A stretch of 64,000 nucleotides of DNA, taken from NCBI GenBank assembly GCA_000146465.1, contig CP001951.1; one strand, 5' to 3'. The stretch's first letter is position 1, and the number at the start of each line of letters is the position of its first letter. Below the pieces are notes generated by a model that was not told the origin of the DNA, did no database searches, and was given only the letters and a program-made list of their open reading frames with translations. Shown here in pieces: positions 8,301 through 64,000 of the stretch. The translations under genes and the position numbers were made by a program.

Positions 8301-10337
8301 TTGGGACTCATACTTCTTGAGGATAGTCTCAAACCTACTAAAGGTGGCCCACTCAGCATCCAATCCTCCTATTCTTTCTTGTAAGGAACTGCAAATCAAA
8401 GGATAATCCACAATACCAAGAATCTTGTTGAATCTTTTGATTTTCTCTTCAAGCTCTTCGTATCTTGTCTTAAGAGATTTAAACATAGGCCAAAACATTA
8501 GTCCGTCTCTTTCCTTGGCTGCATTGTCTATCTTTTCCCCAAAATCTCGAATCTCAGAGACCAAGGCCTCTCGTCTTGACTTTATGATGCCAAACGGAAT
8601 ATCATTTAGAAATAAGTTCAAGGCTTCCCTGTTTGCTTCTAGAGCACTATCCCTTTCACTCCGGACAGTCTCAATGGCCACGCTTGGTCTTTCCAGTCCA
8701 TACTCAATGACGGCCCCATTCAACTCTTCAAGAATTCGAAATTCCTCGGACCGGAGATATTCATCAACCAGTATGGAATTGGATATTCCCTCAAGCAGAT
8801 CTCTTCTCTCCATACTGCTTTCTTGGGATCCAGAATCTCCCATGCCCCCAACCATATCCTTCCTTGCAGCTAGCATATCGTAGACTCTGGAGTTTTCTGC
8901 ACTTACAAACCTGCAAACTTCATCGCATACCGTCTCAAACAACCTCGCTTGTTCTGAAGCATCCATAGTATGTTCAAAGGTAAAAAATGGAATTGTATTC
9001 TTAACAAACATCTCGACACTTCTTTGCGAATCCCGGACTCTCAGAAACCTTTCGTAAAGCCCCAAAGGAAGGTCCCAAGTCGGAATCAACTCCAATATTC
9101 TTGTGCAGGTTTCATAATTTGCCACAACCATTCCAATTATTTTTTCCACTTTAGACCTTATTTCCTGGCCTGGCCTGAGCCTTTGAAGAACCTTTTCAAA
9201 GAAATATCCTTCTCCTTCCGAAGGAAATATCTTCTCCAAAATCTTAAAGTACTCAGAAAGAGGAGGTTCAAAACAATGCTCCACACCATTCCCACATCCT
9301 TCGATCTTTACAATTTCTTTCTTAAGCCTATGTTTTGAGGAAAACAGACTGCTGTCTCCTGCTTCTAAGGCCTCCAGTACAGATTCAAGATATTGTAGGA
9401 ACACTCTGCTCATAGACCTATTTATCCCTCGCACTACAATGCTCTTTTCGTAAAACTTAAAAAACTCCAAGTAAGTCTCGCTGTCGAGAGAAAACAGCAT
9501 CTGCTTCTGGATTTGTTTGGAAAATATTGCTTTCATTTCCTCCTTGGCTATCTTTTTTAAAAGGAATCTGTAGGTGTAAACCCTGTTCTCAAGCTCCCGA
9601 ACTCTGTCGTCGATCTCTTCTATGTCTTGGAAGTCCTTTGCATCCTTCCATCGCAGCATCAAGATCTTTTCCATTGATCCAAACACCAAATCTATCTCCT
9701 TGTGAAACAGATCTAGGTCTTCACGCACATCCTCCAATATCCTGTTGATTCTCCTGCATCCATCATCAATTCTTGTGTAAATAGATCTAGCCTCTAATGC
9801 TAAAGCCATTGTCTCATGGATAGGTTGAGAAATCCGAGACCTAACACCCTCCAGAGATACAATAGTCATGTACTCATCCAGCCTCTTTAGAATGGTAGGC
9901 TCAGGTGACACCTTGAACTTCCTGTTTCCATCGGCTTCCCTACTAATGCTCACTATTCTTCCCCAGGAAAATCCATCAGAAAGCACGGAATTTTCCCACT
10001 CATATATTGTGTCACTTACCTGTCTTTCTATGCTCTTTTTCATCCTTCGGATCTCCCACAGCTGCACTATCCCGTCATAATCCTGCCCAAAAAATAGATC
10101 TAGAATCTTCCAGACTTCTCCAAACATGTCGTGAAACATGAACAGTCTAGATAGCTTATTACAGAAATTGTCATCCAGAGATGGAGGACATGACTTTACA
10201 ATAGAGTCTAGGTATCTGACAATCATCATCCTATTGTTAACTGTTTTTCTTGCGAAAATCTCGAACAGGTTGAAGATGGAGAACATTTTCATGACCTTGC
10301 ATAGCTTGTGAAACTTATCTCCATCCTCCTGTGGCAA
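2349..10337 (-). CDS. Dynein heavy chain, linker, AAA+ motor and C-terminal portion
   Basis: A 2662-aa ORF with AAA1 P-loop context (GRSGTGKTESVKYYCRLIGKPVFVFCCNE), further AAA modules (GGNGAGKSTL, GEVGVGKRSL) and the stalk coiled coil. Its first codon is TTG, and the frame stays open upstream into the overlap with ORF 10315..11820, so this is the downstream part of a split gene. Confidence 0.85.
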   Translation of the reverse strand: MPQEDGDKFHKLCKVMKMFSIFNLFEIFARKTVNNRMMIVRYLDSIVKSCPPSLDDNFCNKLSRLFMFHDMFGEVWKILDLFFGQDYDGIVQLWEIRRMKKSIERQVSDTIYEWENSVLSDGFSWGRIVSISREADGNRKFKVSPEPTILKRLDEYMTIVSLEGVRSRISQPIHETMALALEARSIYTRIDDGCRRINRILEDVREDLDLFHKEIDLVFGSMEKILMLRWKDAKDFQDIEEIDDRVRELENRVYTYRFLLKKIAKEEMKAIFSKQIQKQMLFSLDSETYLEFFKFYEKSIVVRGINRSMSRVFLQYLESVLEALEAGDSSLFSSKHRLKKEIVKIEGCGNGVEHCFEPPLSEYFKILEKIFPSEGEGYFFEKVLQRLRPGQEIRSKVEKIIGMVVANYETCTRILELIPTWDLPLGLYERFLRVRDSQRSVEMFVKNTIPFFTFEHTMDASEQARLFETVCDEVCRFVSAENSRVYDMLAARKDMVGGMGDSGSQESSMERRDLLEGISNSILVDEYLRSEEFRILEELNGAVIEYGLERPSVAIETVRSERDSALEANREALNLFLNDIPFGIIKSRREALVSEIRDFGEKIDNAAKERDGLMFWPMFKSLKTRYEELEEKIKRFNKILGIVDYPLICSSLQERIGGLDAEWATFSRFETILKKYESQKVCDVDVEQLSSFLKSIDVSLFHAEYYKEFQSKIKYYISGLDCLQHTKSPYVKKKYFDTEMETKEFFLLQDKDEVEKRLADSRMEYEVERYIERARAEIFLVSLKVRHLRKEEVVIPDLSQVEERVNKLLVEHDSISRFNEKNFFIEELNGIKERMDDCLSFLACLEEVQRGIREFANVFSTDGLDFEAKKYSMIKKRFLDVLNRFSTPSSSSGWEVKLGALLPHKDEFLGMKKDFDDISKGLKVFLRRCRERTPRLYLVSDIDLIRGLNSRSYYVEMLGMMFNIDGVIVENGSILGFEGNGETVMLRQKVQIDQDIGGFMDTFEEEVKRTLKSWFHDGLESLKEGCPSIISDLISEFKYFNKRDFEMTPKLRVLEREIEKHPNGVIRLYPKPVLKSGELFMDSTEEIEYGFEYYPPVDIVFTPLVCRVLSSIAISLKSLCGVILYGRSGTGKTESVKYYCRLIGKPVFVFCCNEGCELETLRNVISGAVLTGSYLCFDEFNRLSEEIMSGATELILLNKNKTKFFLTMNIGYKGRYRMPRSLRAILGETRIDAPDIKDIIDYYCKESSEKIYRLMREVESKASKQDHYDFGLRAVRTITKGREEAEIMRSAIYFYMACLGREDKAIFVKEFEKIFERKVEQNLAHKDMLLYGLENRRGALVIGGNGAGKSTLIKLARESRGAMCFYYNPRNIGKIFGFQDKVTGEWKDSKFVRDLRRNMDSSKECWFVFDGIAESFWIEDFNSILDENKLLCLSSGERIRIPDHYRFVFESTSMENITPATLTRVFLVHMEEDDLYQIGNLQNTVGTGMDIRYDGRKVPVFPFRGLVVTEEQSFYARAMEALVKDGSKVFFMRGEVGVGKRSLVEEVFKEKVVVIEGNGFETSMIAQSLGEDKIKRVGEEKIYDLRSVVYIEGFDCRNVSLVEAVREYNECGRIGEIEVKNMVLICGINEKKGNDAIRNTAAERLRRKIKSIFVEEPRDTELLFESEIRKRFEATKHFQDYKRVLQVVEFIYKNFKVNLKEITSFIRTLGDLCMEEGDLVDLMYFEAKIYFGESKDLEEEMQRAFGRRPEEIEFNLETRRFRRAKRCSDISYVGSIFHRGYNLVIEGGRMSGKHWVVRECMRQMKENVRIVSNEDEKKIDGQTAFLVEDVSSLRKDISNQCMIFKLKRTAYYSLDLLKIYNMVRSKDISDLDMVKECFTTNVGINIDLENEGIPSETSSLAMGVEEDGHPWECQHPNVVTTGFLCKAIGFGMSFARIAREFKEKESRRRKFLIGGLQKIEDFGKEALALGLESSRKKKDLEKLTDRLDGQLEKIINTQKQLEREKGAIGNRKREIEGALMMNQKKQEVIDKRLRVAKTLLSESRRSIEELPKSSLSEIRVMINPPEIVRNTVEAVYWIVEGETKGGSIEWKQLIQFMKREDFVSKVLNCRSTKVPDVLENMISNPLFSYEKAQKASSACGPLFMWVMARYKYAKTMEEISPLDQEIAVLGKEVEKSRKEIEEEEKKLLQIEKKIEAMKDEYNASVLKLESIKKEIKSADERALLMDKIVRELSDEVEKWRRMKYLCPIKYILSSTDWVLHCKRNGFVHSSGISALTRARRFISTSLEDKNYKQVLSNCSYYGNDVIVYGCDRFDKDVYRALKRQMDNPQYSIILVSSTKTNPYKEYTYNCSFVERFETEESGNLERLEERLLELIVEHAPLNEVYEHKKKLEKERSISKQHSKKREVYEILNLVFGRKSKIFFEAYGVHLSFRIYREYVENVIYPILESRLCRDNFENMWAGMVDADMNLVRDVISRSVDSFYSSTFPDTKDEYEGLIHEMSRHPFDYTLIIACDIATHIIEEKMAITAVISAGPKENNEKIYRMLEEESQEDRTYLIKNIHFLGSCKKSGNSRLILTIEEGKKHSLMEDTKVVYCKGYGTQEGTAIASFSGGDEDLVKFHVEMSNRNSQFGLKDLMLCAENMGHCDREYLKTIVYGSRLDV

Positions 10338-11781
10338 TAATACCCCCAGAACTTCGGTTTCTTTCTTTCTCGCCTTCCTCCAGGATATCAGAGTCTATGT
10401 CGCAAATCCTTTCGAAAGCCTCGTTGAAAACATCGGAGACAAACCCCTCCTGTTGGTCAAATACAACTTCTAGTCTAGCCTTAATGTTGAAGAGATCTTT
10501 CTTCATCCATCCTACCACAGGCCTCAAGTCAGGATCTCCAATCTCAGATATCATTTCTTGTAGCAGGCTTCTGTATCTTATTTCATGGGCAGCCTTTTCT
10601 GGAGAACTCTTCAGTAACTTAGGAACAACTGCTCCAAGTCCCTTGAACGACCAAGAAAAGAGAAGGATTTTCTTGATGTCTTTGAATTCGGAGTGAAATT
10701 TGGCCAACTCCTCTCCTCCCCTGAATTCATAGAACAATGACGACTCTAAGGACATGGCCTCAGATTCCTCGCCCTCCCTAGAAACAGTAAGTGAGCACAT
10801 ACTCTCTATAGAGCATAAAAGTAGTTCTTCACAACACTTAAGCCACCCAATCGATAGGTTCTCATGCACCTTGTCGATTATTAGCCAAACTAGTCTATCC
10901 ATCTGGGAAAGAATCAGTTTTCGAGCCATCTTCGACTGTCTTCCAATTCTTCTGCCGATTTCCTTTATAGCACTAACTGTAGAGTCCTTGAACTCGTCCA
11001 AGCTCCTTGGAAAATAAACTCCCTTAAAGTCCATGCCCTCATAGAAGCCATGAAGCCCTCTTCCAAGTTCGAAGTACTTGTTTGATAACATCAAGCTCTC
11101 TAGGGTTGCTGCAGAAACAAACCTTTTACTCCTCTTCAAAACATCATGAACAAATCCAAATACTTCGGACTTTCCGAATTCTCTTATATAGCACATCTCC
11201 ATATAGAATTTGCTCCAGAAGGTCTTTTCCTCATGAAACCCACTTCTTTTGAATCCTACGGACTCATGAAGTCCTCTTATGCAGCTGGTCCACTGTTCCA
11301 CATTCCTATGAATAAGCTCCAGCTCACCACTAGAAAGAAACCTTTCGGGGTCAAGCCCATTCTGAAGCTCCTCACCATGCTTCCTATAAAGCCGATCCAT
11401 TTCCTGGGTTTCCATGCTAAGATAGATCTTTTCTTTCTTATCTTCTTCACTTACGGCTTTGCTGAGATGCAGGGCATGATGCTCTAACAACCGGAGAGCC
11501 TTCTCTACAGCCACAGATACACCCTTCTTTTTAATCCTAGACATGGTGGCTGGTATTACGAAGTTCGACATTGCATCTACCATGAATTCACATGAGCCTT
11601 TGAGTATGAGAAGCCCATCCTTCCTGTGATTGACTATACAGTCTGCTCCGACCTGGGATTTCTCTTTACATTCATAGGAATGTCCATTACTATCCGAGAT
11701 ACATTTATGAAAATCCGTAGTAGACTTCAATTTGTCCACAATTCTGTCTATCTCATCGCAAAGTGTATTGTTTGTGTCCAT
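10315..11781 (-). CDS. Dynein heavy chain N-terminal tail portion, separated from the motor ORF by a +1 frame break
   Basis: The track ORF is 10315..11820, first codon TTG; the first ATG (MDTNNTLCDEIDRIV...) is at 11781..11779. It ends at TAA 10317..10315, only 23 nt inside the start of the 2349..10337 ORF. Both frames are open across 10318..10394, a stretch that includes the C5 homopolymer at 10343..10347. It lies on the same strand and is contiguous with the motor ORF, and together they total about 3,150 aa. Confidence 0.55.
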   Translation of the reverse strand: MDTNNTLCDEIDRIVDKLKSTTDFHKCISDSNGHSYECKEKSQVGADCIVNHRKDGLLILKGSCEFMVDAMSNFVIPATMSRIKKKGVSVAVEKALRLLEHHALHLSKAVSEEDKKEKIYLSMETQEMDRLYRKHGEELQNGLDPERFLSSGELELIHRNVEQWTSCIRGLHESVGFKRSGFHEEKTFWSKFYMEMCYIREFGKSEVFGFVHDVLKRSKRFVSAATLESLMLSNKYFELGRGLHGFYEGMDFKGVYFPRSLDEFKDSTVSAIKEIGRRIGRQSKMARKLILSQMDRLVWLIIDKVHENLSIGWLKCCEELLLCSIESMCSLTVSREGEESEAMSLESSLFYEFRGGEELAKFHSEFKDIKKILLFSWSFKGLGAVVPKLLKSSPEKAAHEIRYRSLLQEMISEIGDPDLRPVVGWMKKDLFNIKARLEVVFDQQEGFVSDVFNEAFERICDIDSDILEEGEKERNRSSGGIIATGGWR

Positions 11782-11804
11782 TGGAGGGTCAGAAGAGCAA
11801 AGAT

Positions 11805-12725
11805 ATGAGAACCTTAACAATTGATGGAAGAGCCCTAGTTATGGACATCCACATGCTAAGAAAGGAAAGAGAAAACTGCATCAATGAAAGAGATCGGCTC
11901 ATTTCTGAAATGGACTCTTTCATCGTAGGGTCGATGGGGGAAATAAGAGAAGCATTGACCATTCCCGAAACTACTGTCTGGGAAATCTCTCAGGAGGATC
12001 TCTTGCTATTTGTCTCCTGGAGGATATCCAAGCTGATTTCTCTAACAAGAGATAAAAAGATAGAAATTCTCAGCAAGCTCGTTTGGGAAAAGGTGAACTA
12101 CAAAGACTTGGAGAACATCCTAGTCGCCGAGTATTGCTACAAAAAAGTGTTGGCAAACGACTTTTCGGAAAGTTCTGCCTGGGATACCGATGTTTACATT
12201 GACATAGGAAATGGGGATGTGGACATAAAAAGCGATTCTGTGGAAAGAATAACAACTGGTTCGGATGGGGTCTTTTACAGATCACTGAATGGTCTATTTT
12301 CGAAGAGGTTCCATGTGAGGGTTAGCAAGGAGCTAATGAGGTCTTATGCCCTGAATATAAAGGTGGAGATGGGCCTGGAGATCTTCAAAAGCCTCTATGA
12401 GAAGGATGAGGAAGACCTGAAAAGGCTGTCATCATACAAACACTACAAGGAGAAAGGGCTTCCCACACTCGTTATGAGCGGTGAAATGACAAGTAATCTG
12501 ATGGAAGACATAAGAGCAAGAGTTTCCCAGGAAGTTACTGGAATAATTGCTGCAGAAATGCCAGACAGAAAAAAGGCGCTTCTCATCACCTACCTCCTTG
12601 TGATGTTTGGAGGAATCGGGTCGGATCTTGACTTAAGCTATTTCAATGGGAAGAAAGAATTATACATGCTGGAATGGACAAAATCCAAAGAAAATATTTT
12701 TATCAAAATACAACTCGAGAGCTAA
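11805..12725 (+). CDS. Hypothetical protein
   Basis: The track ORF is 11763..12725, first codon GTG; the first ATG (MRTLTIDG...) is at 11805. It is divergent from the dynein ATG at 11781, only 24 nt away. I recognise no family. Confidence 0.4.
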   Translation: MRTLTIDGRALVMDIHMLRKERENCINERDRLISEMDSFIVGSMGEIREALTIPETTVWEISQEDLLLFVSWRISKLISLTRDKKIEILSKLVWEKVNYKDLENILVAEYCYKKVLANDFSESSAWDTDVYIDIGNGDVDIKSDSVERITTGSDGVFYRSLNGLFSKRFHVRVSKELMRSYALNIKVEMGLEIFKSLYEKDEEDLKRLSSYKHYKEKGLPTLVMSGEMTSNLMEDIRARVSQEVTGIIAAEMPDRKKALLITYLLVMFGGIGSDLDLSYFNGKKELYMLEWTKSKENIFIKIQLES

Positions 12726-42464: not shown

Positions 42465-42520
42465 AGCCTTTTTCTCAAGTGCTGTTTGTCTTATAAACAA
42501 AAGAATTTTGTATGTATCAA

Positions 42521-42955
42521 GCCATGGCGGGTAGACAAAAATCAAATCAAGTTGACACCATTATTTAATCCCAAGAGTCTTGTCAATCTCCTCTGCAAAG
42601 TACTTCTCCACAAGCGCCCTTTTCTTCTTCGCTGTCGGCGTAAGCAGATCCGCGCCCTCAAAACTCTCAAACCCACGCCGCAGCACAACAACCTTCGACG
42701 GAATCTCAAGCCTCGTGATCCTCCTCTGCTTCACCAGCTTCTCTCCAACCTCCCGCAGGTGCTCCATAATCTCCTTCTCACTCCTCTTCTCGTCAGGACA
42801 CACAACAATCGCAATTATCCTCTCGCTCTCAGACCTCCGTGGAATAAACACATCCTGTATAATGTCTCCGTCAATGTACAGCGTCTCAAGCTTCTCAGGG
42901 TCAATGTACTCCCCCTGTGCAGTCTTGAATCCATCCTTCAGATGCCCAATCCCAG
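42521..42955. repeat. Left arm of a ~435-bp near-identical inverted repeat (a copy of the acyl-CoA synthetase 3' end plus about 40 bp of its 3' flank)
   Basis: The reverse complement of 42521..~42955 matches 46475..46910 nearly base for base, for example gccatggcgggtagacaaaaatcaaatcaagttgacacc at both outer ends. The encoded peptide LKDGFKTAQGEYIDPEKLETLYIDGDIIQDVFIPRRSESERIIAIVVCPDEK[R/K]SEKEIMEHLREVGEKLVKQRRITRLEIPSKV[V/I]VLRRGFESFEGADLLTPTAKKKRALVEKYFAEEIDKTLGIK differs at only 2 aa. Confidence 0.8.
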
Positions 42956-44651
42956 AAATCACCTTACTTATAGATATAGCCAAAATATCATCCGCATAGC
43001 TGCTCTTCCATTCAAGTATAACCTCCTGTCCAGACAGCTTGACATGGATGTTTCCAATCATAAGCCCAGACTCCACCTCAACAAGCTCCTCAAACCCATC
43101 CATAAGCACTTGCTTCAACAATACCCCTGTCGAGTTGTATGGGATCCTTTGCCTCTCGTATATGCTCATCTCCTTGTATTTAGATTCCATCAAATCGTCT
43201 CTCTTGTATATCCTAATGTCGTTCTCTGTCCCTACGATAATCCCCTCAAATTCCCCCTCAGCATTGGTAAATATTTTAGCCTCATTATCCTTGACTAGAT
43301 CAAATCCTGCCTCTTCTCCATTCCGTAGAGTATAAAGCTCCATCTCAATCCCTTTCTTTTCGTTTCTCTGCTGAATCACATTCCTGAGTCTCTGCATCTC
43401 ATTCATCTCTCCATGCACAAAGAAGAGGTGCCGAGGTTGGCATTCTTCAATGAACTGGCTATTTTGTGTAAAATCCACATGCGCACTGAATGAGATGTAT
43501 TCCACCGACATGTTAAGCCGAAGCCTCTTTCCATTCAACGCCTCTATCTCCTTGGGCTCGCTGAGTATCTCCTTTGCAAGTGTTCCGTCTACACAGTATC
43601 CAGGTATTATCACGGCATTCTTACTGTCCGAACACCATCGCTCAAAGAGATCTCTTGAAAGCCCGCTCTGCAGCATTCCCGGGCTGGCCATGATCACACA
43701 TGGACCCTCATCATCAAAAGAGTCTATTCCCTTCAGATTCTTGACATATTTGAATGCAAACGGGTTTCGGACCAAGCTTAGTTTTTGAATCCTCTCGTTC
43801 ATCATTCCTATGTAGGTCTGATATACCCCCATACACCTTTTTGCCAATGCAGATGCATAGTAGATTGGGATCTTCTGCAGAGAAGCATTTGAGCTCCAAT
43901 GTTCCTCAAGAATAAGAAGAAGCTCCTGTGCCCTTCCAAGAGCAAACACCGGAAGTAGACATCTCCCCCCTCTTTGAACAACATTCTGAACAATGCTTGT
44001 AAATCGGCCCTCCCTCTCTGATCTCGGAAGATGGCATTGCACTCCATATGTCGATTCCGTTATAAGTGCATCGATTTTGCATCCAGGAGACTCTGCAGCC
44101 TTAAGATGTCTGTCTTCTTCCCTACTGAAATCCCCGGTATAAAGAATCTTGCTCTTCTCTATTTCAACCAAAAACATGGCTGCCCCTAGTACATGCCCTG
44201 CATTCAATGCCTTAACCTTAATCCCCTTCACATTGACTTCTTGATGGTAATCGATAGGTATGATTCTGTCGTAGCATTTAACCAGGTCTGTTTCGGTGTA
44301 GAAGTCTGCATCCGATGCTGCATTGATCAGCCGGATATAATCGTTCAGAAGCCATTTAAGAATGGCCTTTGTAGGATGTGTCATATAAACCTTTCCTTTG
44401 AAGCTTGTCTTTTCCGTTAGAAACGGCAGTGCCGCTGCATGGTCTAGGTGGAAGTGTGTAACAAATATGGCATCGATCTTCGAAAGATCTACAAGATCCA
44501 GAAAAGGAAGGGATGCCACGCCGGTGTATGCCGGATGAACCCCGCAGTCCAGCATTATAGTCCTGCCCCCACACTCGACAATAACGCATGATCTTCCAAC
44601 TTCGTTTCCTGCCCCAAGAGGCATCACTTTTATCTTCTCGCTAGAGAACAT
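42561..44651 (-). CDS. YSH1: Cleavage and polyadenylation specificity factor 73-kDa endonuclease (CPSF73/Ysh1) with a chimeric C-terminus derived from the acyl-CoA synthetase tail
   Basis: Metallo-beta-lactamase (VTHFHLDHAAALPF, HxHxDH), beta-CASP and RMMBL regions are present (IKVMPLGAGNEVGRSCVIVECGGRTIMLDCGVHP...). The last ~140 codons (42561..~42955) are the inverted-repeat copy of the acyl-CoA synthetase C-terminus. Confidence 0.8.
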   Translation of the reverse strand: MFSSEKIKVMPLGAGNEVGRSCVIVECGGRTIMLDCGVHPAYTGVASLPFLDLVDLSKIDAIFVTHFHLDHAAALPFLTEKTSFKGKVYMTHPTKAILKWLLNDYIRLINAASDADFYTETDLVKCYDRIIPIDYHQEVNVKGIKVKALNAGHVLGAAMFLVEIEKSKILYTGDFSREEDRHLKAAESPGCKIDALITESTYGVQCHLPRSEREGRFTSIVQNVVQRGGRCLLPVFALGRAQELLLILEEHWSSNASLQKIPIYYASALAKRCMGVYQTYIGMMNERIQKLSLVRNPFAFKYVKNLKGIDSFDDEGPCVIMASPGMLQSGLSRDLFERWCSDSKNAVIIPGYCVDGTLAKEILSEPKEIEALNGKRLRLNMSVEYISFSAHVDFTQNSQFIEECQPRHLFFVHGEMNEMQRLRNVIQQRNEKKGIEMELYTLRNGEEAGFDLVKDNEAKIFTNAEGEFEGIIVGTENDIRIYKRDDLMESKYKEMSIYERQRIPYNSTGVLLKQVLMDGFEELVEVESGLMIGNIHVKLSGQEVILEWKSSYADDILAISISKVISGIGHLKDGFKTAQGEYIDPEKLETLYIDGDIIQDVFIPRRSESERIIAIVVCPDEKRSEKEIMEHLREVGEKLVKQRRITRLEIPSKVVVLRRGFESFEGADLLTPTAKKKRALVEKYFAEEIDKTLGIK

Positions 44652-44722
44652 TCTAGGGCGATCAGAGCAAGTTGAATTTCTTGCAACTGGTTTCTTTCAG
44701 AATAAAAGATAAATGTAGAAGT

Positions 44723-44742
44723 CTATTCATATTAATGAATAG
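44723..44742. promoter_or_regulatory. Perfect 8-bp hairpin with a 4-nt loop in the divergent CPSF73/acyl-CoA-synthetase promoter
   Basis: ctattcat-atta-atgaatag (44723..44742), inside the 147-bp AT-rich spacer 44652..44798. Confidence 0.2.
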
Positions 44743-44798
44743 TATTACTATAAGCAGTAAATTGGAAACTATATAATAATAAATGTTATACAATTAGG

Positions 44799-46868
44799 AT
44801 GGGAACAATCAGGTTTATATCTATAATCTCTTTTCTTAGTGATATGATGATTTGGTGCATTGATGGACCTGGTAAAGAAGCCAAGGATAATCTTAAGGCT
44901 CCTCTATTGACAAGTGATAATAAGCCCAATGATTTTAAGGCATCACCTATTCCATGTAGTGAAAGTACCGTTAGAATGTCTCGTTTCAAGGATATGATGA
45001 ACAGAATAAGGATTATGGAAGATGGATCTGTGCAACACGTCAACTTCCAGAGAGATGTTGTGTGTACCCCAGACGGCTCAAAAACCATCCTCGAGCTCCT
45101 TCTCTCGCGCTGTGCAACAATGGGCAACGAGCCCTTCCTCGGCACAATCGTCGGCAACAAGGTCAAGTACAAGACTGCAAACGACATCCGCAGAGAGGCA
45201 GAGGGCCTTGCCTCGTTCCTGGCACAGACCACAAGCCCCGGAGACATGGTGGGCATCTACTCTGTCAACAGATACGAGTGGATAGTTGCCGAGATGGCAA
45301 CTTACATGTGCGGATGCACCAATGTCCCCCTGTACTCCATGTTCTCGCCCGAGAACGTCCAGATGATTCTGAAGGAGACGGGGATGAAGGTGTGTGTTGC
45401 GTCTCGGGAAAAGGCCGAGCAGCTGGTTGAGACTGTGCTGGAGGGCAGGGAGACGATGCTCGAGCACATTGTGCTGATGGACAAGGCGCCCGAGCTGGTG
45501 GCGAGGCTTGAGAATGCCGGGCTGCGGGGACATTACCTCAAGGAAGTGATTTCTCATCGGGGAGGGATAACCAAGGAAAGGTACTCGAAGGGGGAGGATC
45601 TTGCAACGATATGCTATACAAGCGGGACATCTGGGTGTCCCAAGGGGGTGATGCTGACACACCGGAACTTTATCTCTGGGGTTTCTGGGATATTCCGTGG
45701 GTCTCGGAAGGAAGAGATGGTGTCTCTTGACAAGGAGGATGTGTATCTGTCGTACCTGCCGCTAGCACATGTGATGGAGAGGATATGTGTCAACATCTCG
45801 ATGGCATATGGGTGCAAGATAGTGTTCTACAGGGGGAACATGAAGGAGATCAAGGAGGACTATCTTGTGGCGAAGCCGACATTTATTATTTCTGTGCCGC
45901 GGGTGCTGAATCTGTTCAAGGACAAGATTGAGGAGAAGGTGAGGCAGAAGAACTTTGTGCTGCGATGGATTTTCCGGGGGGCCCTCCGGTACAAGATGTG
46001 GAGAGTGGGGCGAGGAGAGCTGAAGAGCAAGTTTGCAGACTGGCTTGTGTTCAACAGGATTGCAAAGGAGTTTGGAGGGCGGATTTCGCGGATTCTGTGT
46101 GGGTCTGCACCTCTTCGGAAGGAAGTTCTGGTGTACATGCAGGCTGTGCTCTCGTGCCGGATTATCCAAGGATATGGGCAGACGGAGAATGTAGGGTCGG
46201 GGATTGTGCAGCCGCTGGACACGAACCTGTACGACAATGTTGGGATTCCCTTTCCGTCGAACGAGGTGAAGCTTGGAGAGATACCAGCGGAGCTTGGGAG
46301 CGAGTATGGGCGCCGGTATCCTGGAAGGAAGTTTGGAGAGATTCTGTTGCGCGGGGACAATGTGACGCAGGGGTACTTCAAGAGGCCTGAGGAGACGGCG
46401 GAGCTGTTTACTAAGGACGGGTGGCTCCGGACGGGGGACATTGGGATGTTTGATGTGTCGACGGGGATGTTTTCTGTGATTGGGCGTCTGAAGGATGGAT
46501 TCAAGACTGCACAGGGGGAGTACATTGACCCTGAGAAGCTTGAGACGCTGTACATTGACGGAGACATTATACAGGATGTGTTTATTCCACGGAGGTCTGA
46601 GAGCGAGAGGATAATTGCGATTGTTGTGTGTCCTGACGAGAAGAAGAGTGAGAAGGAGATTATGGAGCACCTGCGGGAGGTTGGAGAGAAGCTGGTGAAG
46701 CAGAGGAGGATCACGAGGCTTGAGATTCCGTCGAAGGTTATTGTGCTGCGGCGTGGGTTTGAGAGTTTTGAGGGCGCGGATCTGCTTACGCCGACAGCGA
46801 AGAAGAAAAGGGCGCTTGTGGAGAAGTACTTTGCAGAGGAGATTGACAAGACTCTTGGGATTAAATAA
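44799..46868 (+). CDS. Long-chain fatty-acid-CoA ligase (acyl-CoA synthetase, AMP-binding family)
   Basis: AMP-binding motif ICYTSGTSGCPKGVMLTHRNFISG, the ACSL linker and gate region, YGQTENVG, and the C-terminal lid GWLRTGDIGMFD...IGRLKDGFKTAQGEYIDPEKLE typical of ACSL. The first ~70 codons are AT-rich with a TM-like segment; the true start may be an internal ATG. The body from ~45030 is markedly GC-rich. Confidence 0.8.
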   Translation: MGTIRFISIISFLSDMMIWCIDGPGKEAKDNLKAPLLTSDNKPNDFKASPIPCSESTVRMSRFKDMMNRIRIMEDGSVQHVNFQRDVVCTPDGSKTILELLLSRCATMGNEPFLGTIVGNKVKYKTANDIRREAEGLASFLAQTTSPGDMVGIYSVNRYEWIVAEMATYMCGCTNVPLYSMFSPENVQMILKETGMKVCVASREKAEQLVETVLEGRETMLEHIVLMDKAPELVARLENAGLRGHYLKEVISHRGGITKERYSKGEDLATICYTSGTSGCPKGVMLTHRNFISGVSGIFRGSRKEEMVSLDKEDVYLSYLPLAHVMERICVNISMAYGCKIVFYRGNMKEIKEDYLVAKPTFIISVPRVLNLFKDKIEEKVRQKNFVLRWIFRGALRYKMWRVGRGELKSKFADWLVFNRIAKEFGGRISRILCGSAPLRKEVLVYMQAVLSCRIIQGYGQTENVGSGIVQPLDTNLYDNVGIPFPSNEVKLGEIPAELGSEYGRRYPGRKFGEILLRGDNVTQGYFKRPEETAELFTKDGWLRTGDIGMFDVSTGMFSVIGRLKDGFKTAQGEYIDPEKLETLYIDGDIIQDVFIPRRSESERIIAIVVCPDEKKSEKEIMEHLREVGEKLVKQRRITRLEIPSKVIVLRRGFESFEGADLLTPTAKKKRALVEKYFAEEIDKTLGIK

Positions 46869-46910
46869 TGGTGTCAACTTGATTTGATTTTTGTCTACCC
46901 GCCATGGCTC
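46475..46910. repeat. Right arm of the ~435-bp inverted repeat (native acyl-CoA synthetase 3' end plus 3' flank)
   Basis: See the left arm. This copy is in its native ACSL coding context, where the C-terminal lid domain is canonical, so it is the likely source copy. Confidence 0.8.
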
Positions 46911-58279: not shown

Positions 58280-60085
58280 ATGATTCTAGATGAGATTGTG
58301 AAGGAAGCGGCAGCGCTGCAGCTGAGGAAGGAAGACGAGAATACATGGTCTCGGGTGAACGATGTACTCATGAGGCTTTCCGGGGCAGTTGTGGGGCCGG
58401 AAGATGTGCGAAGAGTGTTAGAGAGTGTTTCCGACCTGATTGTAAGGTCGATGCAGAGTGACAGATCGAGGCTTGCAGGAACAGCCCTTGGATTTCTCAA
58501 GAACTGCATTTGCATCTTGGGAAATGAGTTTGGGATGGCAGGGCAATATCTAGTGCCTCTAGCGAAAGTATGTGGAAAGAGCAGTAAGGTGTTTTATTCA
58601 AGGGGAGAGGAAGTGCTTGTAGAACTTTGTAAGAGAGTGAATATTAAGGGACATGCAAGGTTTTTTAGCGAATACTGTGGAAGTGCCAATAAGAATGTTA
58701 GGCTTGCTATTTTCCGGGGGATTGAAGCATGGGGGAGTGAGTCTGGAAAGATAGAAGGATTGGAGAATCTTGTTATAAAGGGAAGAGAAGATGCATTTTC
58801 GGAAGTTCGAGAGGTGTGCAAAAGAATGATGGAGAAGTTCAGTATTGGGGAGAGAAAGGAAGGATGCTTTAGAAGACAGCGTTTGGAAGAGAGTCTTGAG
58901 AGTGGGGTAAAGAAAGGGCCTGTTAGAATGGCCAGGATGCCGGTGCGAGGGGGATATGGAGGAATGGAAGGAATCGGGGCAAGAGAGATGGAAAAGAAAG
59001 AGCTTGCACCCAAGTTTTCTCCGGCTAGAAAGCAAACAAAAACAGGAGATAAAGACTATGACAAGATAAGGGAGCTTTCAAGACAGGTCAAGGACATAGC
59101 CGAAGACATAAGGCCGAATGTGGGGGCTGAGAAGAGCTCAAGCGGTAGAATAAGAACCAAGATAAAAGAGATGTTCTCCAGAGGAAGTGATAAGGCAGGG
59201 ACTGTGTATCCAGAAAGTAAGGTTGAGATACCAAAGGAGGTGATGAACCATGAGGATCTAACTCCAGTGAGGTTGGACAAGTATCTCAGTAGATATCGTG
59301 AAGAGTATGGAAGGCTTATTCCCAAGAATATAACTGGAGTTAGCAATGGATTTGAAGTTGAGGATACCGAGCTAGGGGAAGAATTTCTAGAAGCCAAAGA
59401 AGTCTCTGATGAAGACAAGGCGAGGATTGGAGAAACAAAGGAAGAAGATAAGCTTAATGGGTCTTGCGAAGAGAAGAAGGAAAGGATTGTTGTTGGGAAT
59501 GAAAGCTTTGATGAGGAGATGGGACATGATTTAGAGGGAGGAGATGAAGTGTGTGCAGAGCTTGAGATCGGAGAACTTTCGAAGAGCTTAGCGAACATCT
59601 CGATCAATGAAGGAGATGTGGAGGATAAACCACATTCCGATGGAGATGGGATGTTGTCGGAGGCTTCTGGAAATCCCTACGAGAATCTTGTTGAAGGACA
59701 AGAGATGGAAAGCTCTCTTAAAGAGTACACCATAATGGATTCTGGGAAGCTAGAAGAACACAAGGAAAATAACAGGGATGAATCCCGGCTTTGTAGAGGA
59801 TCTGGGGCCTCGATCGGAGAGTCAACAATTTCGATTGACTCGGAGGTTGAGAACCAAAGAAAGGAGAGAAAGAAGGGATGTAGGAATGCTCTTGAGATGA
59901 TGAAGGGAAATCGATTTGCAGGGTTTCTTGAGTTGAGTGAAAGCAGCGAGGAAGAGACTGTATTTTCTAGAAGGCAGGGGGAAAGGAAGGAAGGAGTGGA
60001 GAAGCAAGATGCAGACAACACAGGCGACTTTACGGCGATGGACTCCCTTGTGGAGGTTAGAAGAGGGGTTTTTAGAAAGAAGTAA
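58280..60085 (+). CDS. Hypothetical protein with a HEAT/ARM-like N-terminal domain and an acidic Glu-rich C-terminal half
   Basis: A 601-aa ORF. The N-terminal 190 aa look like helical repeats, and the C-terminus is highly acidic and low-complexity. Confidence 0.4.
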   Translation: MILDEIVKEAAALQLRKEDENTWSRVNDVLMRLSGAVVGPEDVRRVLESVSDLIVRSMQSDRSRLAGTALGFLKNCICILGNEFGMAGQYLVPLAKVCGKSSKVFYSRGEEVLVELCKRVNIKGHARFFSEYCGSANKNVRLAIFRGIEAWGSESGKIEGLENLVIKGREDAFSEVREVCKRMMEKFSIGERKEGCFRRQRLEESLESGVKKGPVRMARMPVRGGYGGMEGIGAREMEKKELAPKFSPARKQTKTGDKDYDKIRELSRQVKDIAEDIRPNVGAEKSSSGRIRTKIKEMFSRGSDKAGTVYPESKVEIPKEVMNHEDLTPVRLDKYLSRYREEYGRLIPKNITGVSNGFEVEDTELGEEFLEAKEVSDEDKARIGETKEEDKLNGSCEEKKERIVVGNESFDEEMGHDLEGGDEVCAELEIGELSKSLANISINEGDVEDKPHSDGDGMLSEASGNPYENLVEGQEMESSLKEYTIMDSGKLEEHKENNRDESRLCRGSGASIGESTISIDSEVENQRKERKKGCRNALEMMKGNRFAGFLELSESSEEETVFSRRQGERKEGVEKQDADNTGDFTAMDSLVEVRRGVFRKK

Positions 60086-60204
60086 GAGCCTAAGGGCGAA
60101 GAAATAAAGTCTTTAAGTTAGCCAGGTTTTTGTGTTTTATGTGTGGGACGTAGAAAAAGAAGACATACTTTGAAGGTTTGTTTAAATTGTCCTGAGGAAG
60201 AACT

Positions 60205-60394
60205 AGTGGTTAGATGGCAAGTCGACCGCTCTGGGCAGTAAGCGCGGGTCTAGAGATCTCCTTGTGGGTAGTTGGGGAGTCTGTAGGGACTCTGCACCTA
60301 CCATTAAAGCGGAGGGGAACGCATGAGGGCGGAAACGCAGCAATGAGTACCTCCTGCAAGGCAGAGTCTCCAGCCTTCCGCGCCAGTCCTTTTT
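60205..60394 (+). ncRNA. Candidate signal recognition particle RNA (reduced, S-domain-like), probably a Pol III transcript
   Basis: It lies in a 375-bp GC-rich gap between genes that has no ORF. catGAGGGCGGAAACGCAGCAatgagtaCCTC (60321..~60355) closely parallels the SRP RNA helix 8 apex (human GAGGUCGGAAACGGAGCAGG: a GNRA tetraloop followed by AC-G.AGCA). Flanking complementarity gggactctg/cagagtctcc and gcggagggg/ccttccgc is consistent with a long helix-5-like stem. A T5 run at 60390..60394 serves as a terminator, and a TTTAAAT box sits about 25 nt upstream of the proposed 5' end. The ends are approximate. Confidence 0.4.
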
Positions 60395-60460
60395 GTGGAG
60401 TATGGCTTTTGCTTTTGAAGAAGGGATGGGGATATTGCTAAAAAAAACAAAGATCCCTAC

Positions 60461-61894
60461 ATGCTTGAGAACATAAGGATAGAGCCGAAGATGAGCTACA
60501 GGAAGATAGTGGGGGTCAATGGGCCTCTTGTGATAATGGACAACATCGGGTTTCTAAAGTATGCAGAGATAGTCAGTCTGACGCTTCCTGATGGAAGTGT
60601 TAGGCAGGGACAGGTTCTGGAGGTGTGTGGAAAGAAGGCTGTGGTCCAGGTGTTTGAGGGGACGTCTGGAATAGACATCAAGGAGACACAGGTTACATTT
60701 ACAGGAGAAACATTGAAGATGGGGATTTCGGAAGACGTGCTGGGAAGGATATTCAACGGGAGCGGAAAGGTCATTGACGGAGGCCCGAACATCATTGCCG
60801 AAGACTACTTCGACATCCAGGGACAGCCCTTGAATCCATACTCCAGGATATATCCCGAGGAGATGATCCAGACTGGAATATCATCGATTGATGTGATGAA
60901 CTCGATTGCCAGGGGACAGAAGATTCCTATATTCAGTGCATCGGGGCTTCCCCACAACGAAATAGCTGCACAGATATGCAGGCAGGCAGGGCTTGTGAAG
61001 AGAAAGGACTCGATAGATAGTAGTGACGACAACTTTGCAATAGTTTTTGCAGCAATGGGGGTGAATGTAGAGACTGCAAATTTCTTCCGGAACAGCTTCG
61101 AAGCATCTGGATCGATTGGGAGGACAGCATTGTTCCTGAATCTGGCCAACGACCCCACCATCGAAAGGATCATCACGCCACGACTGGCGTTGACGGCAGC
61201 AGAATATCTTGCATATGAGAAAGAGAAGCATGTTCTTGTGATCATGACAGACATGAGTTCGTATGCAGATGCGTTGCGTGAGGTTAGTGCTGCAAGGGAA
61301 GAGGTTCCAGGAAGAAGAGGATATCCAGGATACATGTATACAGACCTTAGCACGATATACGAGAGAGCAGGGAGGCTGGAGGGAAGAAACGGATCTATCA
61401 CCCAGATCCCGATTCTAACAATGCCAAATGACGACATAACGCATCCGATTCCAGATCTCACGGGATACATCACCGAAGGACAGATTTACGTTGACAGGCA
61501 GATGCACAACAGACAGATCTATCCACCCATAAATGTGCTTCCATCATTGTCTAGGCTGATGAAAAGCGCAATTGGGGAAGGGATGACGAGAAAGGACCAT
61601 GGAGATGTGTCGAACCAACTTTATGCAAAGTATGCAATAGGCAAGGATGCCCAGGCCATGAAAGCTGTTGTGGGTGAGGATTCTCTTTCTTTGGAGGACA
61701 AGATCTCGATAGAGTTTTTGGAAAGGTTTGAGAAGGAGTTTATAAGCCAGAGACATAACGAGCTTAGGACAGTGAACCAGTCCCTGGACATTGCATGGGA
61801 TCTCCTTCGAACGTTTCCACGAGAAATGCTTAATAGAATCCCATCGGACATATTGGATGAGTTCCATTCTGTGGCGCCCTCGAGATCGGAGTAG
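60461..61894 (+). CDS. VMA2: V-type proton ATPase subunit B
   Basis: [26 protein letters not shown], the degenerate P-loop region, [22 protein letters not shown] and the [34 protein letters not shown] signature of V-ATPase B. Confidence 0.9.
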
Positions 61895-61963
61895 ATCCAC
61901 GTTCTTGTTTCCGGGGATGGATAACTCGGAAGAGGGGAAAAAGGCGATTTCCAGCAAACCCCG

Positions 61964-62128
61964 ATGAACGGAATGGGCACAGACCAGAAAGTCTTTACAT
62001 ATGTATGCATACAGTGTCCCTCGCTGAGGGAGCTGAAACTGAAGGATCCCATCAGATGCACGGAATGCGGCAACAGGGTTCTCCGCAAGAAGAGGACAGA
62101 CAATGTGGTGCAGCTGGATGCCGTCTAG
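61964..62128 (+). CDS. RPB12: RNA polymerase I/II/III common subunit RPABC4 (Rpb12, ABC10-alpha), 54 aa; it falls below the ORF-track size cutoff
   Basis: ATG at 61964, stop TAG at 62126..62128. The product is MNGMGTDQKVFTYVCIQCPSLRELKLKDPIRCTECGNRVLRKKRTDNVVQLDAV. The C-x2-C...C-x2-C zinc ribbon and LKPKDPIRC.ECG.R...KKRT are the Rpb12 pattern. It is preceded by ggaaaaagg...aaaCCCCg. Confidence 0.65.
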   Translation: MNGMGTDQKVFTYVCIQCPSLRELKLKDPIRCTECGNRVLRKKRTDNVVQLDAV

Positions 62129-62204
62129 TTTACTCAATAAATATGTTCTCTGTCAGTACGACTCTTATAATAGTCTTTATAAAAAAGTGTGTTGGAAACC
62201 CCAA

Positions 62205-62564
62205 ATGGAAGAGGGAAGGAAAAGAAAGGCAAAGGACCAATTGTCGCCATATTCCAATCCGGTTGAGGAGAGTGACCAGCATAGTGGTGTTGTAGAGCCT
62301 CTTCCATTGATTCACAAGAAGAGGGCCAAGGCAAGGGTTGGGGATTCATCAATGATTGCAAACTCCGAATCTCTGAAAGGGGTGCTGAGTTCTGTGAATA
62401 TCCTAAAGCCGAGGGGAGGAGGCAACGATAGAATAAGCGGTCTGAACAGATGCTTTGTCAATGCTGTGCAGAAGGTGGTTGAGAAGGAATCCAACAAGAG
62501 TCTTTTGTATTTATTTAGGCAATACGAGAAGTATTACAGGGAGTTGACGGAATCGAATGATTGA
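62205..62564 (+). CDS. Hypothetical small basic protein (about 119 aa)
   Basis: The track ORF 62103..62564 begins inside the Rpb12 gene. The ATG at 62205 (MEEGRKRKAKDQ...) is preceded by tataaaaaagtgtgttggaaaCCCCaa, so this is the likely start. No confident family. Confidence 0.4.
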   Translation: MEEGRKRKAKDQLSPYSNPVEESDQHSGVVEPLPLIHKKRAKARVGDSSMIANSESLKGVLSSVNILKPRGGGNDRISGLNRCFVNAVQKVVEKESNKSLLYLFRQYEKYYRELTESND

Positions 62565-62622
62565 ATTCCAAGTTGAATAAATGACGATATTATTTAAGAA
62601 GTTGTAAACAGATAGATTTTTG

Positions 62623-64000
62623 ATGAGAAATGTGTGTTTGGTGGTGATAGACGGATGGGGGCATTTGGAATCAAGGACGCAGGGGAATGCTGTGTCGGAG
62701 TCGGAGTGCCGTTGGATGAGGGCTTTAAGCTGGGGACGTTGCAGTCTTCTTCTGCATGCCCATGGTAGATATGTGGGGCTCCCTGACGGGTTAATGGGGA
62801 ATTCCGAGGTAGGGCATCTAACTATAGGGAGCGGGAGGATTATCGAGCAGGACATACTAAGGATAGATCGAGCCATTGAGGAGGGAAGGCTGAAGAAAAT
62901 AGTGGATGAAGTGCTCCAGGGAGGCCGAGGTAGAATACATGTGGTGGGGATGGTTAGCGACGGAGGAGTCCACTCACACATAAGACATCTGAAGGGGATT
63001 TTGGAGTCTCTGAAAGGACGTAACGAAGAAGTGTTTATCCATTGTATAAGTGATGGGAGAGATACAGAGCCACAGGTGTTTTTAAAGTATCTTGAAGAAA
63101 TTAAGAATTTCTGCCGGGATATTGGCACAGGAAAGATTGCTTCTGTGGCCGGGAGGTTTTACTCAATGGACAGAGCAAACAACGAGGAAAGAACAGAGCT
63201 TAGCTTCAAGACAATGACAAGTGGGAAGGAGATAGGAGAAGATGCCGAGGATTATGTCCTTGGAATGTACAAGGAAGGTCTGGGAGATGAGACCCTTAGG
63301 CCTTTTCTTGTTGATAAGGCCGGAAGGATAAGTAGAGAAGATACCATCATCTTCTTCAACTTCAGAGCAGACAGGATGAGACAAATTGCTTCTAGGTTTG
63401 CCAAGAACGGAAACAACATAGTGACAATGACCGAGTACAAGAAAAATCTTAAGTCCAAGGTTCTCTTCGGGAAGGTCTGTGCGAAGAACACCTTGGCAGA
63501 GGTTTTGTCAGACCGCGGAATAAGACATACACACATAGCAGAAAAGGAGAAGGAGGCACATGTGACATACTTCTTCAACGGGGGTAGGGAGCAGCCATTT
63601 CTCTGGCAAAAGACGATAATACTTCCCAGCCCAGACGTTGAATCTTTCGACACAGTACCATCAATGGCCTCGAAGGAAGTGACAGAGTATGTGATTGCAG
63701 AGATTAGAGACGGAGTACCGATGGTAATTGCCAACCTTGCACCCCCCGACATGGTAGGACATACAGGAAACCTTGAGGCAACAAAGATGGCTGTTGAGGC
63801 AGTGGATGGATGCATAGGGACAATATACAGAGCCTGCATAGAGAACAAATATACTCTAATCGTAACTGCAGACCATGGAAATGCCGAAAGAATGACGGAT
63901 GGAAGAGGAAACTGCTGCAAAACCCATACAACAAGTAAGGTTCCTCTAATAGTCTGTGGAGAAGAAGTGGGAGAATTCTCTTCCTCATGGGGATACACAG
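62623..64000 (+). CDS. 2,3-bisphosphoglycerate-independent phosphoglycerate mutase (iPGM), N-terminal ~459 aa; the gene runs off the right edge
   Basis: ATG at 62623. The translation has no stop to 64000: MRNVCLVVIDGWGHLE...GLMGNSEVGHLTIGSGRIIEQD...VVGMVSDGGVHSHIRHL...HCISDGRDTEP...SMDRANNEERTEL...HVTYFFNGGREQ...DMVGHTGNLEATK...LIVTADHGNAE. The catalytic-Ser region DGWG, the Mn sites and the ADHGN motif are the iPGM signature. The ORF track omits it because there is no stop in the window, and track ORFs 62511..63128(-) and 63252..63998(-) are its antisense shadow. Confidence 0.8.
   Translation, partial: MRNVCLVVIDGWGHLESRTQGNAVSESECRWMRALSWGRCSLLLHAHGRYVGLPDGLMGNSEVGHLTIGSGRIIEQDILRIDRAIEEGRLKKIVDEVLQGGRGRIHVVGMVSDGGVHSHIRHLKGILESLKGRNEEVFIHCISDGRDTEPQVFLKYLEEIKNFCRDIGTGKIASVAGRFYSMDRANNEERTELSFKTMTSGKEIGEDAEDYVLGMYKEGLGDETLRPFLVDKAGRISREDTIIFFNFRADRMRQIASRFAKNGNNIVTMTEYKKNLKSKVLFGKVCAKNTLAEVLSDRGIRHTHIAEKEKEAHVTYFFNGGREQPFLWQKTIILPSPDVESFDTVPSMASKEVTEYVIAEIRDGVPMVIANLAPPDMVGHTGNLEATKMAVEAVDGCIGTIYRACIENKYTLIVTADHGNAERMTDGRGNCCKTHTTSKVPLIVCGEEVGEFSSSWGYT

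Follow-up and report, generated by a model that had tools for sequence, protein, structure and literature searches.

A GC-rich island within the acyl-CoA synthetase gene of Encephalitozoon intestinalis and its relation to an inverted gene duplication

Why should the base composition of a single gene change abruptly within its own open reading frame (ORF)? This question is raised by the gene of a long-chain acyl-CoA synthetase (ACSL), known as Eint_100850 (PMC11972355), in a 64-kb stretch of contig CP001951.1 which is referred to as the window in the following. The window originates from the 2010 short-read assembly of Encephalitozoon intestinalis ATCC 50506. An earlier note on this sequence had described, as a visual impression, an island rich in guanine and cytosine (GC) that covers the body of ACSL in AT-biased surroundings, the start of the same ORF being AT-biased as well. 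As its origin the note had considered horizontal acquisition or introgression of the gene body, a tract of recombination or gene conversion, or codon optimization of a highly expressed gene. Our analysis leaves very little doubt that the island is one arm of an inverted ACSL duplication of approximately 1.92 kb under concerted evolution.

The island and the inverted duplication

The window has a GC content of 44.1%. Positions 45030-46870 reach 53.6%, while the remaining segments of 1840 nt have a mean of 43.9% with a standard deviation of 1.5 and a maximum of 48.5%. The island lies outside the range of every other such segment (z approximately 6.4), and the sliding profile bears out the impression of an abrupt GC-rich stretch. 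The comparison of codon usage leads to the same picture: among 43 long ORFs ACSL has the highest GC content at third codon positions (GC3), 0.646, which none of the 42 others (0.45-0.57) reaches. The AT-biased start of the ORF is real, too, with a GC3 of 0.30 in codons 1-66 and of 0.68 in codons 67-689. A two-segment maximum-likelihood scan placed the left change-point of composition at 45024 (support 45008-45068) and the right one at 46824 (support 46778-46866), which is approximately at the ACSL stop codon. Within the 64 kb the island or arm is the sole GC outlier and the sole repeat of at least 60 nt. The outer part of the arm, 46468-46909, recurs as an inverted repeat of 442 nt with 99% identity at 42520-42961, where the GC content is 0.52 compared to 0.39 upstream. 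The copied tail near CPSF73 and its GC-rich composition were thus correctly seen in the earlier note; only the reading of this copy has to be changed, as outlined further below.

The 689-aa product of the ORF is an exact match to ADM12411.1, XP_003073771.1 and UTX46243.1 and is 100% identical to the E. intestinalis ACSL. Its AMP-binding domain and homologs annotated as ACSL support the assignment as a long-chain acyl-CoA synthetase.

In Encephalitozoon two ACSL copies are found in inverted orientation on either side of a spacer of approximately 2.3 kb that carries CPSF73. At the orthologous locus of E. cuniculi GB-M1 the arms of this palindrome measure 1935 nt and the spacer 2361 nt; the arms are 1946 nt long in E. 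hellem, 1901 nt in E. romaleae and 1921 nt in the telomere-to-telomere long-read assembly of E. intestinalis ATCC 50506 (CP075167.1). The palindrome is also present in EcunIII-L, in the long-read assembly of E. cuniculi ATCC 50602 and in two long-read assemblies of E. hellem. An arm extends from a few nucleotides off the ATG of the shorter copy to approximately 25-55 nt past the stop codon. The island of the window can be aligned with either arm of the long-read E. intestinalis locus (5928-7848 and 10191-12111 of the extract), spanning from about 8 nt 5' of the start codon of the short copy to 41 nt beyond the ACSL stop. Four out of the five mismatches between these two arms are located within the inner 35 nt, so that perfect arm identity starts at position 45024 of the window. 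The left composition change-point coincides with this first base of perfect identity. A corresponding rise at the arm edges is seen in the GC profile of E. cuniculi, with approximately 0.59 inside the arms compared to approximately 0.48 beyond them and 0.38-0.53 in the spacer. A single ACSL without the repeat is found in Ordospora colligata, O. pajunii and Vairimorpha bombi, and the gene order in Ordospora is TBC(+) CPSF73(+) ACSL(+) RNR(+). As the palindrome occurs in four Encephalitozoon species and is absent from Ordospora, the duplication is younger than the split from Ordospora and older than the radiation of Encephalitozoon.

Recombination or gene conversion between the arms keeps them near-identical, ie, they evolve in concert. 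In each of eight assemblies the arms of one genome differ at 0-5 positions per approximately 1.93 kb (99.7-100% identity), compared to a nucleotide identity of ACSL of 76-82% between Encephalitozoon species, and the paralogs pair by species in a neighbor-joining tree. Seven single-nucleotide polymorphisms (SNPs) that distinguish strains (three in E. hellem, four in E. cuniculi) are found in both arms of a strain, which indicates that homogenization is recent and ongoing. The suggestion of a recombination or gene-conversion tract is supported by these observations, the island being one arm of a conserved palindrome. A further ACSL copy sharing the GC-rich body, the existence of which had been put forward for inspection, is found in the long-read assembly and is near-identical to the arm.

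The foreign origin of the gene body, ie, transfer or introgression from a GC-richer donor, has the atypical composition as its argument. The homologs of ACSL rank from Encephalitozoon over Ordospora, Nosema/Vairimorpha and other microsporidia to fungi, and the neighbor-joining tree of the protein follows the species tree with Ordospora as the sister group, so that a foreign acquisition is rejected and a non-microsporidian donor is refuted. The TBC-CPSF73-ACSL-RNR synteny is conserved from Ordospora to Encephalitozoon. In Ordospora, too, ACSL is flanked by CPSF73 and RNR; compared to the gene order of its relatives the gene is no insertion. The protein divergence from Ordospora (0.44) lies within the range of the neighbouring genes (0.17-0.62). 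We therefore regard horizontal transfer as having next to no probability.

Further evidence for an exchange between the arms arises from the orientation of the spacer. The longer of the two ACSL copies is located beside RabGAP-TBC in the long-read assemblies of E. intestinalis (CP075167.1) and E. hellem ATCC 50604, which places CPSF73 in the same, ancestral orientation as in Ordospora. It is located beside RNR in E. cuniculi GB-M1, EcunIII-L and the long-read assembly of ATCC 50602, in E. hellem ATCC 50504 and the E. hellem assembly GCA_029215505.1, which is based on long reads (PMC11592040), in E. romaleae and in the window. Spacer orientation is unreliable in short-read assemblies, including the window and drafts from 2025. 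The two long-read assemblies of E. hellem also have opposite orientations, and this disagreement is best explained by a crossover between the arms. The opposite orientations represent independent evidence of arm recombination. The orientation in three draft isolates of 2025 was discarded as evidence, as their contigs were overlap-merged from SPAdes assemblies of 151-bp Illumina reads, which cannot phase a repeat of 1.9 kb. In the drafts of ATCC 50507 and ATCC 50651 the contigs break off exactly 35 nt into the short-copy arm, counted from its inner edge, at the point from which the arms are perfectly identical, and they traverse the other arm into differing flanks. These contig ends are the footprint of an unresolved repeat and carry no information on orientation.

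In the openly searchable literature we found no published account of the palindrome, its concerted evolution, its effect on GC content or a misassembly of the reference. The text of the telomere-to-telomere paper contains no mention of inversion, inverted, gene conversion or misassembly. The features of the locus are compiled in Table 1. Apart from this locus a slight rise in GC content, to 0.47-0.48, was noticed at 60001-63000 approaching the end of the window, and in two ORFs on the minus strand (62511-62981 and 63252-63839) the GC content at second codon positions, approximately 0.50, is unusually high.

Table 1. Features of the ACSL/CPSF73 locus in the window.
Feature	Position	Strand	Remarks
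Outer end of the second arm, 442 nt (ACSL tail and 41 nt of 3' flank)	42520..42961	-	Very probably the sole remnant of the second ACSL copy
Chimeric junction of ACSL tail and CPSF73	42942..42961	.	Imperfect microhomology CTTCAG..GCCCAATC in a three-way alignment
CPSF73/Ysh1 endonuclease, core of the palindrome spacer	42962..44651	-	Pfam Beta-Casp, Lactamase_B, RMMBL, CPSF73-100_C
Divergent intergenic region between CPSF73 and long ACSL, in the spacer	44652..44798	.	AT-rich, approximately 0.28-0.32 GC in 200-nt windows
ORF of the long ACSL isoform, 689 aa, Eint_100850	44799..46868	+	AMP-binding PF00501, Pfam E = 7e-69
N-terminal extension of the long copy	44799..44996	+	Encoded by the spacer, outside the arm, AT-rich, GC3 0.30
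Complete palindrome arm, GC-rich island	44989..46909	+	Aligns to both long-read E. intestinalis arms; GC 0.53, GC3 0.68
Antisense ORF, 371 aa	45762..46877	-	By-product of composition
Antisense ORF, 329 aa	45860..46849	-	By-product of composition

Base composition of the arms

To what extent is the GC excess linked to the palindrome? We expressed the GC3 of ACSL as a z-score relative to ten genes of the neighbourhood, calculated over shared codon columns. In the species possessing the palindrome the score is +6.2 (E. intestinalis), +5.2 (E. hellem), +10.8 (E. romaleae) and +3.3 (E. cuniculi), compared to +0.5 and +0.1 for the single-copy genes of O. colligata and O. pajunii. For the single-copy ACSL of V. 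bombi the GC3 difference is approximately -0.015. In all four palindrome species the N-terminal extension of the long copy, which is encoded by the spacer, has a GC3 of 0.30-0.42 and the body of 0.66-0.76. The excess is evenly distributed along the arm with +0.15 to +0.37 in each window of 40 codons, and at this resolution no fall-off towards the arm edges is visible. The GC content at codon positions 1 and 2 is raised as well (z approximately 2 compared to 0.6-0.9 in Ordospora), with A decreasing and G increasing. If the Ordospora baseline and the drift of the neighbouring genes are subtracted, the changes at position 3 amount to -0.10 for A, -0.06 for T, +0.11 for G and +0.05 for C. Both directions from weak (A, T) to strong (G, C) bases are thus raised, with a purine bias of 2:1.

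We infer that GC-biased gene conversion is probably, with moderate confidence, the main cause of the excess. The repair of heteroduplexes formed between the arms would favor G and C alleles, and in the course of the evolution of the genus GC3 may thereby have risen by 0.15-0.21 and the GC content at positions 1 and 2 by approximately 0.05, inside the arms only. A gain that is confined to the arms leads to a composition step precisely at their edge, which for the long copy lies within the ORF. Biased conversion presumably acts jointly with a strand-asymmetric component, which could be either an A>G bias linked to transcription or a preference for codons with G in the third position. Since transcription runs outward from the spacer in both arms, homogenization would not erase an A>G bias of this kind.

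Several observations weigh against GC-biased conversion as the main cause. At four-fold degenerate sites G has a frequency of 0.44-0.60 vs 0.23-0.34 and A of 0.07-0.15 vs 0.23-0.32, while C and T barely move; the G/A odds rise approximately 4-6 fold and the C/T odds approximately 1.1-1.6 fold. As GC-biased conversion alone is strand-symmetric, it does not predict this asymmetric gain of G. Equilibrium GC3, estimated from parsimony counts on terminal branches, is 0.53, 0.57, 0.60 and 0.81 for ACSL compared to 0.32, 0.57, 0.48 and 0.67 for its neighbours; it exceeds the neighbours in three out of four lineages, which is a modest contrast at saturated third positions (55-72% identical between species). 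The polarized strain SNPs present in both arms, few in number, comprise two weak-to-strong and two strong-to-weak changes. Finally, the non-coding tails of the arms show no clear GC enrichment (0.29-0.45 compared to an intergenic mean of 0.40); at a length of 41-56 nt they are too short to be informative.

The asymmetry brings forward selection for G-ending codons as an alternative. ACSL would then be a dosage-sensitive, highly expressed gene, its duplication would reflect the demand for more of the enzyme, and gene conversion would merely spread the optimized sequence. Almost the whole excess indeed consists of NNG over NNA codons, G/(G+A) being 0.80-0.91 vs 0.48-0.64; the Arg codons CGN and the Leu codons CTN are raised too, and ACSL is mentioned qualitatively as a stage marker in single-cell RNA sequencing (PMC11972355). 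In Ordospora, too, the single-copy ACSL is richer in G and poorer in C than the neighbouring genes, a milder version of the same skew, from which it follows that a part of the G excess is intrinsic to ACSL. The same Ordospora genes however show no net excess in GC3. Moreover, the 50-67 N-terminal codons belong to the same mRNA and are low in GC3, and the shift extends to replacement positions. In the window no other gene exceeds a G/(G+A) of 0.61, which is a weak test as few of the 38 genes are likely to be highly expressed. The codon-optimized gene of the earlier note accordingly fits the excess of G-ending codons, and leaves the AT-rich first 66 codons and the single-copy Ordospora genes unexplained. 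We consider codon selection unlikely as the principal explanation. Codon optimization may nevertheless contribute to the GC excess.

A mutational asymmetry associated with transcription or replication is the second alternative, in which A>G changes on the non-transcribed strand are the main driver and are shared between the arms by unbiased conversion. This is in agreement with the depletion of A and enrichment of G on the sense strand at little changed C and T, with the GC skew of +0.19 to +0.36 in the island and with the weaker, similar skew of ACSL in Ordospora. It gives no account of an effect that is limited to the duplicated ACSL. The gain of C and the loss of T that persist after subtraction of the Ordospora baseline argue against it as well, as does the N-terminal extension, which is part of the same transcription unit and unaffected. 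As the main driver such an asymmetry appears highly improbable to us, and GC-biased conversion together with a strand-asymmetric component is preferred.

The composition also accounts for two long antisense ORFs within the arm. The earlier note had regarded them as symptoms of the composition, and we come to the same result. The 371-aa ORF uses the antisense frame that is in register with the ACSL codons, in which stop codons correspond to TTA, CTA and TCA in the sense direction. In the ACSL arm A accounts for 0.15 of the four-fold sites (vs 0.30), and the antisense frames stay open because A-ending codons are depleted. Stop-free antisense stretches of 245-459 aa are found in the ACSL copies of four species, compared to 53-216 aa in neighbouring genes. 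The antisense ORFs were therefore rejected as genes.

With regard to the spacer a more far-reaching reading can be given, namely that the palindrome is a flip-flop element, the spacer orientations of which coexist or interconvert in populations of Encephalitozoon, and that a strand-asymmetric (sense A>G) bias of conversion or repair acts on its arms. We consider this combination rather doubtful. If true, each flip would exchange the flank and the 3' context between the putatively anchored long and the short ACSL isoform, and the strand-asymmetric signature would set the locus apart from GC-biased gene conversion of the classical type, in an organism for which a sexual cycle is unproven.

The second ACSL copy and the two isoforms

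If the palindrome is conserved in the genus, why does the window contain only 442 nt of its second arm? Compared to E. cuniculi, long-read E. intestinalis and the draft contig JBLUPJ010000026.1 approximately 1.77 kb are missing at the junction: about 1.48 kb of the inner arm, a short intergenic region and about 74 terminal codons of CPSF73. The truncated CPSF73 reads into the ACSL tail, and owing to the in-frame join at 42942-42961 a chimeric protein of 696 aa results (ORF 42561-44651 on the minus strand; ADM12410.1, XP_003073770.1, UniRef100_E0S9M5). The annotated "beta-lactamase fold exonuclease" consists of approximately 569 aa of CPSF73 and approximately 127 aa of the ACSL C-terminus. In the long-read assembly CPSF73 is complete with 643 aa (UTX46244.1), and the short ACSL copy of 623 aa (UTX46245.1) is absent from the 2010 assembly.

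We propose that the copied tail and the CPSF73-ACSL fusion are very probably the result of an assembly collapse of a full second arm. The 2010 assembly was built from 31-bp paired reads using Velvet with k=19; polymerase chain reaction (PCR) and Sanger sequencing served to join the scaffolds (PMC4355639). With such reads, k-mers and PCR joins an inverted repeat of 1.9 kb is not resolvable. The long-read assembly holds both full ACSL copies for the same strain, ATCC 50506. Over the left flank of 10.4 kb the window differs from it at four positions, all of them within the remnant (42689, 42784, 42943 and 42952).

The alternative is a real deletion in the culture of 2010. The fusion being in frame and the microhomology at the junction could be taken as arguments for it, and the same applies to two clean A>G differences (in ACSL sense, K>R and I>V) at 42689 and 42784, where the remnant differs from the right arm of the window and from both long-read arms. 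These two differences could as well be sequencing errors of 2010 or a real heterogeneity of the arms. Against a deletion stand, in addition to the long reads of the same strain and the limits of the short-read assembly, the 643-aa CPSF73 that is also encoded in three further isolates and the loss of the C-terminal domain of CPSF73, which would probably be deleterious. A real deletion is thus improbable.

An assembly collapse has consequences for the use of this reference. It implies that a widely used reference is in error, in that CP001951 and XP_003073770.1 are chimeric and the 2010 gene count of E. intestinalis is one ACSL short. Eint_100850 serves as a stage marker in single-cell RNA sequencing (PMC11972355), and reads from two identical ACSL genes would map to it.

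The two copies differ at their N-terminus. The short copy of 623-626 aa begins at the arm edge, while the long copy of 673-693 aa enters the arm from the spacer via 50-67 extra codons. This extension starts with a conserved MG.[IV][RK] motif, followed by a hydrophobic segment of approximately 20 aa and a variable linker. Its ORF is open in four species with all indels in frame, and the Kyte-Doolittle maxima over 19 aa are 1.6-2.3 at residues 3-25. The start motif, the hydrophobic segment and the in-frame indels indicate a real coding extension, and judged by its sequence it probably represents a membrane anchor.

Related systems and significance

Inverted, gene-bearing arms with exchange between them are familiar from elsewhere. 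Primate sex-chromosome palindromes (P1-P8 on the human Y, and those on the X) reportedly undergo gene conversion from arm to arm. The ACSL palindrome resembles them in the inverted, gene-bearing arms around a unique spacer, in an identity within the genome above 99.7% despite the divergence between species, in the inversion polymorphism of the spacer and in the GC enrichment of the arms, which in primates is attributed to GC-biased conversion. It differs from them in several aspects. The arms are 1.9 kb long compared to 10 kb to 1.5 Mb, and they are located in the core of a chromosome of a microsporidian genome of 2.3-2.9 Mb. Each arm is a single gene that is cut exactly at the start codon. 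The spacer contains an essential housekeeping gene and provides one copy with an alternative N-terminus, and the GC gain in the arms is strand-asymmetric.

Mammalian Hsp70 and histone paralogs that evolve in concert are likewise said to be enriched in GC. Common to both cases are a GC3 that is raised only in the converting copies, sharp tract boundaries and unaffected relatives that do not convert. Most of the mammalian paralogs are arranged in tandem or dispersed over large genomes with isochores, whereas ACSL forms one inverted pair within a genome of flat composition and few introns. The inverted repeat of plastids also has identical, homogenized inverted copies and a single-copy region in both orientations (flip-flop isomers). 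Unlike the plastid repeat the ACSL locus is nuclear, and its two orientations are seen as a difference between assemblies.

In Encephalitozoon itself recombination-shaped repeats have been described as subtelomeric EXT/SUB blocks (Dia et al. 2016), and GC-biased gene conversion was discussed there in general terms (PMC4704409). In contrast to these multigene families of chromosome ends the ACSL palindrome is situated in the core of chromosome X. The subtelomere paper (PMC4704409) mentions neither a palindrome nor a CoA ligase. The ACSL locus is of a known kind, that of conversion-prone, GC-rich palindrome arms; what is new is its occurrence in the smallest eukaryotic genomes and with an unusually clean single-copy control.

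A composition step within a gene is explained here without gene transfer. Identical catalytic bodies, one of them with a probable anchor, suggest two ACSL isoforms of different localization whose co-evolution is enforced. The same gene with the same neighbours, in the presence or absence of the palindrome, represents a natural experiment that ties recombination within the genome to its base composition, in a group, the microsporidia, for which evidence on recombination, sex and GC-biased conversion is scarce.

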